Made by a program: the position numbers and the translations under genes. Shown here in pieces: positions 35,170 to 38,982 of a stretch of DNA of 64,000 bases. Under the pieces are notes generated by a model. The model had not been told where the DNA came from and did no database searches. It was given only the letters and a program-made list of their open reading frames with translations. Source of the stretch: Gammaproteobacteria bacterium (lineage in GTDB: Bacteria > Pseudomonadota > Gammaproteobacteria > CAJXQU01); contig CBDEGZ010000003.1 of the NCBI GenBank assembly GCA_965238175.1, positions 1,248,001-1,312,000 on the forward strand, in the 5' to 3' direction. The first letter of the stretch is position 1. Each line of letters opens with the position of its first letter.

Positions 35170-36414
35170 TTAATTCTGTGCATCTACCCACAGAGGCCCT
35201 TTTATAGCCTGTGGCCAGGCCCGTTTGCGTGTATCTATTGGATCCAGAGCCTGGAAACGGATCCAATAGAAATCTTCCCAACCTGTATCAAGTGAAAAAG
35301 TAGTTTCGCCCTTGCTCTTGGGCATAACACCATTAACACGAACCTTATCCGTTGCAGAATCTTCCGGCTTGATCCCTTTACGTGCAATCGCCTCCATAGA
35401 ATATTGCCAAATGACCTCACTGTCTCCTGAATTGAGTGTTACCGTCCTGTTCGCTGCGTTATATACGACAGCACGTTTTGACTCATGAAGACTTAGCCCG
35501 CTACTTGCGTAAAAATCACCTGCTCGTAACGCGAGAAGAATCCCCGACCCATTAATTTCATCGTTTTCACTCGATGCCGGCCCCTCAAACTCCTCCACCC
35601 ACACATGAACAGAACCTATTGGATTATTCTTGAGCTCATCGAAGCTGTAGTCAGGACTCCAAAAAGAATCATTACCGGCAATGGCATGAAGATAGGTGCC
35701 ACGACTCAATAACTCATCAATAAGCCACTCACCATATTCAAACTGATAAGGCGTAGGTTTTCCTTTAATCGCTGCTAACTGACTGAAGCTATTAAAAATT
35801 TCCACACCCATCACGTCGAAATTAGTATAGAGTGGCTCCTTCGATTGGATGCTCCAAAGCATATTTTCCCACGTGTTATTGTCCTTATAAACAGGGACAC
35901 TTTCATTCTCACGTTCGAAAATATTGTAATACAGGGGGTGTACGATATAGGAATAAGTCGAAAACGTATCACTATGTGACTTTATCTGATTAACATGGAT
36001 AAACTGGCCACGTCTGTTTTCTGTAGAAAAGTAGCCCTTCCAATCGGCTTCTGGATCAATATCAAGATCCGGATCTGCCAGTTGCTGGGGGGTCCAGTCC
36101 CATAAATTATTTTGTAGTTCACGTGCCACCATTCCTACCATAGGAGATTTATGTGTATCAGCTTCCCAAAGACCAAAATTACCATCTTTTAATTTTCCGC
36201 TGCTGTCTGCATGTTGCGGTTTATATACATGTGGTCCACATGCAATAAAATCATATTTAGTAGGATAATCAGGATCATCTGCCAGTGTATGCGCAGCTTT
36301 AAAAACATCTGACATTGAATCTGCACCATATATATCTTTATAGGTTCCAGTTTCATACACTATTGAATGGCAGTGAATTGCGCCTACAACGGTTTTGGTT
36401 TTAAGAGCTACCAT
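35170..36414 (-). CDS. Divergent PHP-fold (CehA/McbA-like) metallohydrolase
   Basis: GAIHCHS (HxH), YDFIA..PH, VHP, GVEIFNS, AIAGNDS, ILLALRAGDFYASSG; RBS GAGGGG. Confidence 0.65.
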   Translation of the reverse strand: MVALKTKTVVGAIHCHSIVYETGTYKDIYGADSMSDVFKAAHTLADDPDYPTKYDFIACGPHVYKPQHADSSGKLKDGNFGLWEADTHKSPMVGMVARELQNNLWDWTPQQLADPDLDIDPEADWKGYFSTENRRGQFIHVNQIKSHSDTFSTYSYIVHPLYYNIFERENESVPVYKDNNTWENMLWSIQSKEPLYTNFDVMGVEIFNSFSQLAAIKGKPTPYQFEYGEWLIDELLSRGTYLHAIAGNDSFWSPDYSFDELKNNPIGSVHVWVEEFEGPASSENDEINGSGILLALRAGDFYASSGLSLHESKRAVVYNAANRTVTLNSGDSEVIWQYSMEAIARKGIKPEDSATDKVRVNGVMPKSKGETTFSLDTGWEDFYWIRFQALDPIDTRKRAWPQAIKGPLWVDAQN

Positions 36415-36589
36415 AATAAATTCCCCTCACTTAATGTAATGTTGTTGTCATTATCGAGATTGACAATGTCATGATAAAGATTATGTGATTTTAATACTGT
36501 GGGACACGGCAAACCTGTAGGCAAAAGTGTACTTAAAACTGTTGGCAAAAGAGAGGTGGTGGTGCGAAAATCATATATGGTCTCCTCCC

Positions 36590-36819
36590 GTATTGCAAGA
36601 TAAAACATTCAGATAACAGGGACAGGATTGCTGTCATATATACGGCCTTCAATGAAGTTTTCAACTTCTGACCTGGATGTATTACGCGCCTATTTTCCTT
36701 ATCAGGTTATCGGTATTAGTTACCCCTGAGCTCGACAGGTTTTCAATAGGCTGGTTTGACCTGTTATGCCATCTTTAGTTTTACCTTCGCAATTCGTTGA
36801 AATGATTTGTTCTCTCTAT
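36590..36819 (-). ncRNA. Predicted bridge/seek RNA region of the IS1111-type element
   Basis: Position typical of IS1111. Contains TAACCTGAT matching the target flank and ATATATGA matching the circle junction; stem GCCTATT/AATAGGC. Exact ends unknown. Confidence 0.7.
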
Positions 36820-37833
36820 TTAGGCCGGTGAGTAGTCATCACCAGAAACCGTTATAGCCCAGGCCATTCTTGCCATTTTGTTGGCATACGCCACACACGC
36901 TCGATTATGCCCCCGCGTCTCAACTAAACGATTAATCCATTGACTCAGTTTATCGCCTTTCGTTTTGGCTCTTGATACCACGGCCTTCGCGCCTAGAATT
37001 AACAAACAACGAAGGTATTTATTGCCGCGTTTACTGATCCCCAGTAGCACCTCTTTACCACCACTACTGTACTGTCGTGGAACAAGTCCTAATGAGGCGG
37101 ACACATCGCGCCCTTTGTGATAATGAGCGCCGTTTCCCACTTCATTAAAATACGCGCTCGAGACCATCGGCCCAAACCCTGGAATAGTTTGTAAGCGTTG
37201 GCAAATCGCATTGTTTTTTGCCGATTGAATGATCAATTGGTCAAATGTCGCAATACAGGCATCAAGTGATTGCCATTGTTCCTTTAGCTGGCGCAGTATC
37301 CTTTTGAAAGTAACGGACAACCGTTCGTTCTCATCACTTAATAGCAACGGGATAGATTGACGTAGGGTATTTAGGCCGGGACGAAGGCTAATGCCATATT
37401 CTGCAACAAGCGCTCTCATTTGGTTACATAATGCGGTTCTTTGTCTGACCGCTAAGTCTCTTGCTTTATGTTGTGCCTGGTTGTCTTGTTGCTCAACTGA
37501 TTTAATGCCCACACTTTTTAAATGAGGTTGTTTCGCAGCAACGGCGATGGCCAAGGCATCGTTATAATCATTCTTATTGCCGATTAGAAATGCGTTAACA
37601 TGCTGAGGTGGTAGTAATTTCACCTGATGTCCCTGTTGTTGTATCGCTCGGGCCCAATACTGTGACGTTGCACAAGATTCTATTGCGACTAAACAAGGAG
37701 GTTGAGATTGAAAAAAGGAGAGTACCTGCGCTCGCTTTAACATTTTCTTTTTGATTATACGCCCTTGTTGATTACAGCAGACAGCATGAAATACGTTTTT
37801 TGCTATGTCTAACCCGATTGTTGTAGTCTTCAT
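36820..37833 (-). CDS. IS110 family DEDD recombinase/transposase
   Basis: IGLDIAK, AIESC, NKNDYNDA, L.TIPGFG, GLVPRQYSSGGK, SKRGN.YLR, ANK.AR. Confidence 0.96.
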   Translation of the reverse strand: MKTTTIGLDIAKNVFHAVCCNQQGRIIKKKMLKRAQVLSFFQSQPPCLVAIESCATSQYWARAIQQQGHQVKLLPPQHVNAFLIGNKNDYNDALAIAVAAKQPHLKSVGIKSVEQQDNQAQHKARDLAVRQRTALCNQMRALVAEYGISLRPGLNTLRQSIPLLLSDENERLSVTFKRILRQLKEQWQSLDACIATFDQLIIQSAKNNAICQRLQTIPGFGPMVSSAYFNEVGNGAHYHKGRDVSASLGLVPRQYSSGGKEVLLGISKRGNKYLRCLLILGAKAVVSRAKTKGDKLSQWINRLVETRGHNRACVAYANKMARMAWAITVSGDDYSPA

Positions 37834-38019
37834 TTTGGTCTTCTCCTCTTTTGATTGTGTGTATGTCAGTTCAATCATGGCACCTAGATGCCGTTAGGGG
37901 GAGGAGACCATCACATCAGGTTAGCTCATCAGGGGCTGTTGATCGTTCATTTTTGTCACTAATTCTATCGAACCTGCCTTGGCAGAATACATAGTGTTGT
38001 GCGAAGTAATTGATACAAT

Positions 38020-38982
38020 TTAATGATGTAAAATCCAGGGAACGATTTCAGCAAGATCGTCATTCTCAACGACAACATCGGATAAATCTTTATGTGTAAC
38101 ATAATTCGGTTGGCAGGCAATGGTGAGTCCTGCTGAATTAACGACTGATTTGCCAGCAAAAGCTGCGCCTACGAATGCACAGTTGCTAGAGGAGATCCCT
38201 TGATCCCTGCAAATATATTCAATACCCCGTGACTTCTCATCAAGATCGTAGGGTGTTGGCGTAATAGACTGAAGAGATCCCCTGTTATCATATTTAAATC
38301 TATTGATGAATATATAATCGAATAGCCAGTAACAGTCCGGGATCATTATTTCCAGCAACGTATCTATACCTCCGGAAATAATAGCAGTTCGTACTCCTGA
38401 TAATTTTAACTGGTCCAGTGTTTTATAGAGATTATTTGTTACGTGGGTAGTCTGGGAAATAAGGTGAAAGTCTTTTTTTGATAATCCATAATCGATAAAG
38501 TATTTTCCGCAATATACACACCATTCCTCATAGTTAATCTTGCCGGTATAAAAAAGTTTAAGCCCCCTTTTCCTGAGTTCTCCGTTGTCACCAATAAATT
38601 CCCAAACCAATCGCCAGGAGAAATCAAACCCTTTTAACAATGTTCCATCTAAATCAAAAATAACCAACTTTATTTTATCTGTTGTTTGTTCAAATTTTAT
38701 TGCTTCTTTCTTAATTGGGCCGTCAGTTTTTTTATACAGAGACAGGAAAATTTCACCGATACTTTCAGATGGACTCAGTATGATGTCATTCCAACTTTCA
38801 AGCCCGAATCCCTTTGCAATTAATTCTAAACTTCGTTTTTGAGGTCTGAGCGTTTTGCCTGATTCCCAGAGATGATATTGTTTTCTATCAACGCCGCCAC
38901 AAGCAGTACCTGCTTCTTCCTGAGACCACCCATTTTTACAACGCAGCCAATATAACTTTTCTTTATATAATCTCCATTTCAT
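38020..38982 (-). CDS. XRE-type HTH fused to a HAD (phosphoserine-phosphatase-like) domain
   Basis: LR...GWSQEEAG...Y..WESGK..P HTH; FDLDGTL motif I, ISGG motif II, K motif III; motif IV reads GAAFAG instead of GDxxxD. Confidence 0.85.
   Translation of the reverse strand: MKWRLYKEKLYWLRCKNGWSQEEAGTACGGVDRKQYHLWESGKTLRPQKRSLELIAKGFGLESWNDIILSPSESIGEIFLSLYKKTDGPIKKEAIKFEQTTDKIKLVIFDLDGTLLKGFDFSWRLVWEFIGDNGELRKRGLKLFYTGKINYEEWCVYCGKYFIDYGLSKKDFHLISQTTHVTNNLYKTLDQLKLSGVRTAIISGGIDTLLEIMIPDCYWLFDYIFINRFKYDNRGSLQSITPTPYDLDEKSRGIEYICRDQGISSSNCAFVGAAFAGKSVVNSAGLTIACQPNYVTHKDLSDVVVENDDLAEIVPWILHH

Follow-up and report, generated by a model that had tools for sequence, protein, structure and literature searches.

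The window analysed here, a stretch of 64,000 nt from a gammaproteobacterial genome (assembly GCA_965238175.1, contig CBDEGZ010000003.1, positions 1,248,001 to 1,312,000), carries an insertion sequence of 1,345 bp at 36574..37918 on the minus strand, to which all features of the element described below belong. To judge from its sequence, this is a real and probably active member of the IS1111 group, whose mechanism was already published in 2024. One shared TGA is counted at its left end, following the IS1111 convention. The element opens with a left terminal extension, TGATGTG (37912..37918), the first two or three bases of which are the core held in common with the target, and the left target flank TAACC (37919..37923) is target DNA that lies outside it. 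The left subterminal inverted repeat ATGGTCTCCTCCC (37899..37911) is a perfect 13-bp reverse complement of 36577-36589, where the right subterminal inverted repeat GGGAGGAGACCAT is found (36577..36589); both repeats are kept in relatives. The right terminal extension ATA (36574..36576) follows the right repeat in 66 of the 66 elements examined, and a 7-nt extension of the form YGATGNN precedes the left repeat in 64 of them (relatives plus the window copy). The left junction thus reads GCTAACC-TGAT-GTG and then ATGGTCTCCTCCC, and the right junction GGGAGGAGACCAT-ATA-TGAT-TTTCGC. An earlier reading of this DNA made from its letters alone (hereafter the sequence-only reading) had quoted these junctions, the inverted repeats and a GCCTATT/AATAGGC stem, all of which are present.

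The transposase or recombinase gene (36820..37833, stop codon 36820-36822) encodes 337 aa when read from its second ATG. The protein matched PF01548 (DEDD_Tnp_IS110, E 3e-16) and PF02371 (Transposase_20, E 6e-20), both above the Pfam cut-offs, and contains the motifs GLDIAK (D9), AIESC (E52) and NDYND (D89, D92), with GLVPRQYSSG at residues 249-258 (S257-G258) corresponding to the motif GL-P----S(t)G. The serine and residues D9, E52, D89 and D92 are presumably catalytic, by analogy with IS621. The only PDB matches were 8wt6 (the IS621 transposase) and 9t56, at E about 2e-4; the C-terminal part of the protein aligns with 8wt6, SSG falling on ESG, and the sequence search returned no solved structure for an IS1111-type recombinase. 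The gene is followed by 246 nt of non-coding DNA (36819-36574), as against 85 nt upstream (37918-37834), and a scan of 36400-38100 on both strands with the Rfam 15 covariance models, at E up to 10, gave no matches.

At the level of sequence, the element agrees with the IS1111 group in every character that was tested. It combines a DEDD N-terminal domain and a PF02371 C-terminal domain in 337 aa (group range 330-350) with perfect 13-bp repeats, extensions of 7 bp on the left and 3 bp on the right, a longer non-coding region downstream and an oriented insertion without target duplication. Along its RNA, in the 5' to 3' direction, the top-strand match precedes the bottom-strand match, with an overlap between them on C|TGA, as in IS1111 seekRNAs. 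The RNA does not lie upstream of the gene in the IS621 sense but downstream, in the right end, which makes the element IS1111-type and not IS110/IS621-type. The sequence-only reading had seen here an intact IS1111-type element with a downstream guide RNA, a view that the analysis supports.

Copies of the element and their target site

The host genome (3.35 Mb, 40 % G+C, 97.7 % complete) was found to contain 25 copies of the element at 99.85-100 % identity, 24 of them complete and one cut by a contig end, and all 24 complete copies measure exactly 1,345 bp between identical ends. The 16S sequence of the host shows 86-89 % identity to marine gammaproteobacteria, and a search of the genome for DotH and DotI, which had no positive control, found neither. 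The element was not found in the five same-genus genomes searched, a search that had no positive control in those genomes. Its closest relatives elsewhere, among the best 80 of 386, show 68-78 % protein identity and belong to marine Gammaproteobacteria. The pattern suggests that the element was acquired recently and then multiplied in a burst. The left flank of the window copy did not turn up in any of 20 related genomes, none of which offered an empty window site.

The flanks of the copies revealed a target that differs from the one legible at the window copy. The base triplet TGA follows the element in all 24 complete copies, and the next base is A in 19, G in three, C in one and T in one, the single T being that of the window copy. 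TAACC precedes the element in 23 copies and AAACC in the other, and the flank consensus over the 24 copies reads TTA-n-n-TAACC | TGAACTCGGGATAAGAA, with ACTCGGGATAAG as the right-flank consensus. Orientation relative to TAACC|TGA is identical in 24 of 24. Unoccupied sites reading TAACCTGA-ACTCGGGATAAG are also present in the genome, each with a single TGA, which identifies TAACC as target DNA and indicates that only one TGA was there before insertion; among sites whose right half has at most two mismatches, 14 are occupied and seven are full unoccupied sites. Comparing the flanks with these unoccupied sites places the ends of the element 7 nt and 3 nt outside its repeats, and the same 7-left/3-right extension rule is given for the IS1111 family in PMC11187229 (section 4; this paper and the others cited below were drawn on in part).

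The shared core is TG(A), not TGAT as had been read from the junctions of the window copy, and the specificity of the element is about TAACC|TGA(G/A)CTCG in place of the proposed TAACCTGATTTTC. The window copy has only TAACCTGA in common with the consensus target; its right arm is poorly matched, and its TTTTC flank is an outlier that occurs in none of the other 23 complete copies. Since these flanks are atypical, the 'TGAT core' and the 'TTTTC arm' are quirks of one insertion. Inspection of other copies' flanks, which the sequence-only reading had named as a check, therefore supported its left arm (TAACC, 23/24) and the TGA (24/24) but not its right arm.

The usual target, TAACC|TGAACTCGGGATAAG, is the terminal repeat of a miniature inverted-repeat transposable element (MITE)-like element of about 210 bp, for which nine long matches including the query were obtained (L021:1294-1501, that is G000 C3:123561-123768, and also C3:2509870-2510135). 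The terminal inverted repeats of this MITE-like element have the sequence TAACCTGAACTCGGGATAAG, at which the insertion sequence prefers to insert. In several MITE-like copies the insertion sequence sits at one terminus; one mobile element is thus parasitising another.

Further repeats and fragments were observed in this genome. An abundant repeat, present in the window at about 30400 (minus strand) and in some 60 copies genome-wide, contains the small palindrome AAACTTAACCTGACAGTCGGTTAC; it carries TAACCTGA with a non-complementary right half, and one of its copies is occupied (C3:589238). A fragment at G000 C3:2357906-2358383 (L026) shares 79 % identity with the opening ~390 nt of the element and is what remains of another, related insertion sequence. 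Two small palindromic relics (L029:1501-1576, G000 C3:1393269-1393344; L027:1501-1606, C3:1154710-1154815) each consist of two left ends of the element face to face, each end with a TAACC flank. A possible but unproven origin is the collapse of two head-to-head elements inserted in both terminal repeats of one MITE-like copy. The assembly also includes contigs C1 (10,967 bp) and C2 (8,481 bp); C1 has 56 % G+C compared to 40 % for the chromosome and may be a foreign plasmid or a stray contig.

The predicted guide RNA and its target guides

Relatives were gathered by scanning genome contigs, which confirmed 386 and from which the best 80 were kept, 61 to 66 elements being usable. L039 and L095 were left out (truncated contigs), and 65 of the remaining 78 had both repeat anchors, the 13 others having short contigs or diverged repeats; the window copy brought the number to 66. 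Removal of identical non-coding regions left 62 rows, and 57 of these had flanks long enough for scoring (L054, L074, L087, L089 and L102 were dropped for short flanks). The non-coding regions form an almost gap-free alignment.

The predicted bridge or seek RNA core spans about 143 nt (36622..36764) and is closed by an outer stem, P0, of ACAGG (36764-36760) with CCUGU (36626-36622), the ends of which are also paired in the minimum-free-energy fold of the whole non-coding region. Each of the five outer-stem pairs holds in 57 to 62 of the 62 rows, with a C-G to U-A change in six rows and an A-U to U-A change in one. Within it, the predicted target-binding stem-loop (36688..36751) is built from P1 (36751-36744 with 36695-36688, compensatory change in six of eight pairs), P1b CCU/AGG (36739-36737 with 36699-36697, one of three pairs) and an inner hairpin P2 (36724-36721 with 36715-36712, four of four pairs). 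The predicted donor-binding stem-loop (36630..36687) has invariant closing GC/GC pairs (36687-36686 with 36631-36630), P3 GGUC/GGCC (36673-36670 with 36647-36644, compensatory change in two of four pairs) and a terminal hairpin P4 (36668-36665 with 36658-36654, five of five pairs). In each stem-loop the guides lie on the two sides of an internal loop, with the small hairpin distal to them.

RNAalifold and pair counts were applied to 61 sequences, L065 being left out for an internal deletion. In the two-stem-loop structure, 97.7 % of 1,574 cells are paired and 18 of 26 pairs have changed on both sides; 0 of 500 shuffles reached any of the five measures used, and sliding the 3' partners by 1 to 3 columns left only 33-39 % pairing. 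The check by covariance and folding of the non-coding region suggested by the sequence-only reading is thereby answered in favour of a two-loop structure. Folded singly, the sequence does only modestly better than its shuffles (z −2.6 for the region as a whole, −1.0 for the core), so structural support rests on covariation. A terminator-like hairpin at 36635-36621 was considered and set aside, as its 5' arm is not conserved in relatives and its bases are read as part of P0. In L057, L085, L088 and L090, in-frame stops or a frameshift in the transposase gene accompany a well-conserved RNA region.

Within this structure the target guides can be located from the family as a whole. Directly after an invariant GAAAACCUG, almost all relatives have 10 nt complementary to their own target at −1 to +9; about 25 nt downstream, the 7 nt that precede an invariant AUAAGG are the same as their own target at −5 to +2. 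The corresponding segments of the window copy are a top-strand target guide UCGAGCUCAG (36726..36735), predicted to pair with target −1 to +9, C|TGA(G/A)CUCG, and a bottom-strand target guide AUAACCUGA (36702..36710), of which the programmable part is about UAACCUG (36709-36703, −5 to +2). For IS1111-type seekRNAs, a top-strand match 5' of a bottom-strand match, the two overlapping in the target, is described in PMC11187229 (sections 4 and 9). Guides and targets covary: scored only at the 12 positions outside the nearly constant core, cognate pairs averaged 9.55 matches compared to 3.66 (sd 2.01) for non-cognate pairs, across 53 distinct guide pairs, and none of 10,000 permutations reached the observed cognate mean. 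Within the genome itself, 23 of the 24 copies have a target whose top strand agrees with the bottom-strand guide at 8 or 9 of 9 positions.

The sequence-only reading had assigned four words to this RNA, all of which are found where it placed them: GAAAA (36744-36740) and TAACCTGAT (36709-36701) for the target, ACATC (36680-36676) and ATATATGA (36641-36634) for the donor. To gauge how readily such words arise by chance, the 230-nt non-coding region was subjected to 20,000 mononucleotide shuffles, of which the fraction containing the word was 0.0008 for TAACCTGAT, 0.012 for ATATATGA, 0.24 for ACATC and 0.57 for GAAAA, a word with three occurrences in the real region. At least one 5-nt complement to the initial 10 nt of the window copy's right flank appeared in 0.94 of shuffles. 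Taken by themselves, TAACCTGAT and ATATATGA exceed chance, and ACATC and GAAAA do not. The left-target guide was correctly located, since its columns track each relative's left flank and UAACCUG falls within it. The last A and U of TAACCTGAT are conserved scaffold columns, equal to left-end positions 3-4 in every element, and their pairing is therefore a matter on which covariation gives no evidence.

For the right half of the target, the version in which the loop reads GAAAA against a TTTTC arm together with UAACCUGAU, around a TGAT core, is almost certainly wrong. Its words do exist and are complementary or identical to the flanks of the window copy, and one stem contains both GAAAA and the left-arm guide. 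However, GAAAA (36740..36744) belongs to GAAAACCUG, a word shared without change by 50 of 62 relatives whose targets are unrelated, as befits scaffold and not a guide, and GAAAA is contained in more than half of the shuffles; the T after TGA and the TTTTC arm are, as described above, confined to the window copy, and a different segment suits both the family register and most flanks. On these comparisons of sequence, the right-half target guide reads as UCGAGCUCAG, not GAAAA.

Occupancy within the genome also follows the match between guide and site. The commonest flank forms eight Watson-Crick pairs and one G-U pair with the 10 nt of the top-strand guide. We took all chromosomal TAACCTGA sites minus the 25 in the element's own RNA gene and scored complementarity to this guide at +4 to +9. 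Occupancy climbs from score 0 to score 4, the occupied sites numbering 1 of 83 at score 0, 1 of 60 at score 1, 2 of 36 at score 2, 9 of 22 at score 3 and 10 of 12 at score 4. The window copy is one of the two poorest right-arm matches among the 24, only that at C3:589238 being lower.

The proposed donor loop and the joined ends

The second loop has the layout of the first and appears to read the joined ends of the element, which would run CCAT-ATA|TGATGTG-ATGG. A putative left-end donor guide UACAUCC (36675..36681) includes ACAUC (36680-36676), which pairs with GATGT of TGATGTG, and a putative right-end donor guide AUAUAUGA (36634..36641) is identical to the right end plus core at eight of eight positions. 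The left end of the family is YGATG plus two variable bases. At left-end position 6, the facing RNA base is complementary in 59 of 61 relatives (12 with T:A, 47 with A:U). In 58 of 61, the core letter of the AUAUAUGA word, U or C, agrees with the base that immediately follows the right end. This covariation supports the places that the sequence-only reading gave to both donor guides. In a tree of the relatives made by a quick method only, the T:A state marks the window clade (nine rows) and recurs in L074, which is nested in the clade of the other state, and in L079 and L099, at the unresolved base of the tree. The position-6 state has undergone two or three independent switches, that of L074 being clearly independent, and the core letter has switched many times.

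A rather improbable alternative is that only the first stem-loop guides, as a short seekRNA, the second being a part of the precursor that is processed off or a scaffold for protein binding, and that the protein reads the 13-bp repeats. It draws on ISEc11, for which an 82-nt RNA restricted to the target matches sufficed for transposition (PMC11187229, section 10) and moved the element better than the long form, and the donor needed target flanks (sections 10 and 14); the second loop may by this token be dispensable. The ends of the family are, moreover, almost invariant, and RNA words could be conserved for other reasons. Against it stand the joint switching of left-end position 6 and its RNA partner, the nested switch in L074, the core letter that follows the right junction, and a second module whose internal loop is arranged like that of the first; potential donor-binding nucleotides are also reported in IS1111 members (Durrant et al., PMC11208160). 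We accept the donor guides on this sequence evidence, with less certainty than the target guides.

The two junctions do not always share their core bases. In L056, L058, L059, L065, L077, L083, L086, L088, L090, L093, L094, L100 and L108, the left end has TG but the right junction and the donor guide have CG, and in L071, L076 and L081 it is the second core base, not the first, that differs between junctions. These differences may bear on where the strands are cut.

A promoter-like site, TTGCAA-17 nt-TATGAT (36570..36598, promoter scan 9/12), spans the right end. The TTGC of its −35 element is invariant in 61 of 61 relatives, and in a circle the −10 hexamer would form anew from TA of the right end and TGAT of the left end. 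Promoters at such junctions have been described for IS1111-type elements (PMC11187229, section 4; PMC12288879), and by analogy we infer such a function for the junction of this one. In the window copy only, the flanking T completes an outward promoter-like site aimed at a downstream 414-aa gene (open reading frame 35170-36414), which the insertion may drive.

Proposed mechanism and comparison with known systems

Taken together, this evidence makes it very probable that the window holds a recently expanded IS1111-type element made up of a 337-aa DEDD recombinase and a two-loop guide RNA of ~143 nt, with the target TAACC|TGA(G/A)CTCG. In the mechanism proposed, UCGAGCUCAG in the first loop would pair with the target top strand from one base left to nine bases right of the crossover, and UAACCUG, ~25 nt on, with the bottom strand across the core and the five bases to the left of the crossover. 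The second loop, with the same layout, would read the joined ends, UACAUC pairing with TGATGTG and AUAUAUGA matching the right-end ATA plus core. Guided by this RNA, the recombinase would release the element in circular form, with a promoter rebuilt where the ends are joined. Insertion at the core TG(A) would then take place in a single orientation, with no duplication. Production of the RNA, the circle, catalysis and programmability are steps that we infer by analogy with the published systems.

Several points weigh against this proposal. The commonest target has one C-A mismatch to the top-strand guide at +4, where the guide prefers G, and the right flank of the window copy forms five Watson-Crick and three G-U pairs of 10. 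Both of the best-scoring TAACCTGA sites (score 5, 0 of 2) are empty, many occupied sites belong to one repeat family, which makes the occupancy counts non-independent, and the ends of the relatives were placed by the 7/3 rule and not from empty sites. In the second loop, the left-end donor guide has only five contiguous Watson-Crick pairs here, the donor ends vary little, so that the covariation rests on two columns with perhaps two or three independent switches, and the sufficiency of the 82-nt RNA in ISEc11 is to be reckoned with. Lastly, no RNA run was listed as containing the sequence, and the DNA contigs from three runs of one sample showed no circle junction, joint or empty site; the depth of the element's contig, 139 compared to 6-7 for its flanks, only restates the copy number and may stem from the source sample itself.

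The negative RNA and circle results, along with the gene stops of L057, L085, L088 and L090, would suit a recent but now inert fossil, or a protein that chooses its sites unaided, with RNA-target matches as by-products. We give this very little credence, as the 25 copies are all but identical, the complete ones are of one length and the frame of the window copy is open, and as the failure to find the element in the five same-genus genomes searched argues for a recent burst; covariation over 53 guide pairs, for its part, cannot arise from protein-only recognition.

We are evenly divided over a fuller version of the two-loop proposal, in which two loops of the same geometry carry readable guides that predict sites, in an active element that tolerates a mismatched right arm and lives mainly in MITE-like terminal repeats. 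Each loop would have a 10-nt top-strand guide on its 5' side, a 7-nt bottom-strand guide on its 3' side and a small hairpin between them. If this is true, it would yield straightforward rules for designing a compact IS1111-type programmable recombinase, with 337 aa and an RNA of ~143 nt. The guide reading further predicts that, for a mini-element with the flanks TAACC and TGAACTCGG, TAACCTGAGCTCG and TAACCTGAACTCG should be targeted at least as well as, and probably much better than, TAACCTGATTTTC.

The element reveals no new mechanism, as RNA guidance, programmability and a downstream RNA in IS1111 elements were published in 2024 (PMC11187229, PMC11208160). New here are the corrected target, the correct right-arm guide, the demonstration that a nearby conserved word is scaffold, the support for a donor loop of the same geometry and a natural set of ~25 insertions. 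RNA-guided IS110/IS1111 recombinases are under development for genome writing, and most mechanistic work concerns the IS621 type. A clean natural IS1111 case, with ~25 insertions, unoccupied sites and some 60 relatives whose guides change alongside their targets, allows the register of each guide to be fixed and scaffold words to be told apart. In the host genome, the element accounts for the recent burst of identical insertions as well as for some small palindromic relics.

The element resembles the IS1111 elements ISEc11, ISPa11, ISKpn4 and ISPst6 (Siddiquee et al. 2024, PMC11187229) in its DEDD transposase of ~340 aa, its subterminal repeats (11-13 bp) extended by 7 nt on the left and 3 nt on the right, its long non-coding region 3' of the gene, and the order and overlap of its guides; ISPa11 likewise inserts into repeated palindromic sequences. 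A donor-reading loop is supported here, whereas in the parts of that paper drawn on only target matches are described for IS1111 seekRNAs. Unlike those four, the present element has its own guides and a MITE-like terminal repeat as its target, a distinction made from descriptions and not from sequence identity. Within the IS110/IS1111 superfamily, IS4321 and IS5075 reportedly also insert into the terminal repeats of another mobile element. ISPpu9 and ISPpu10 belong to the same superfamily, and ISPpu9 inserts into repetitive extragenic palindromic sequences according to the portion of the literature consulted; the hosts and targets of these four elements differ from those of ours, to which they are likened by description.

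With IS621 (Durrant et al. 2024, PMC11208160; structures 8wt6-8wt9), the element would share a single RNA with a target loop and a donor loop, each reading both strands around a short shared core, and it shares a recombinase with DEDD and Tnp domains in which the serine motif is aligned. IS621 differs in having its RNA upstream of the gene and subterminal repeats of only 2-3 bp, its strand-match order is reversed (PMC11187229), and the similarity of the two proteins is marginal, at E 2e-4 over the C-terminal part only.

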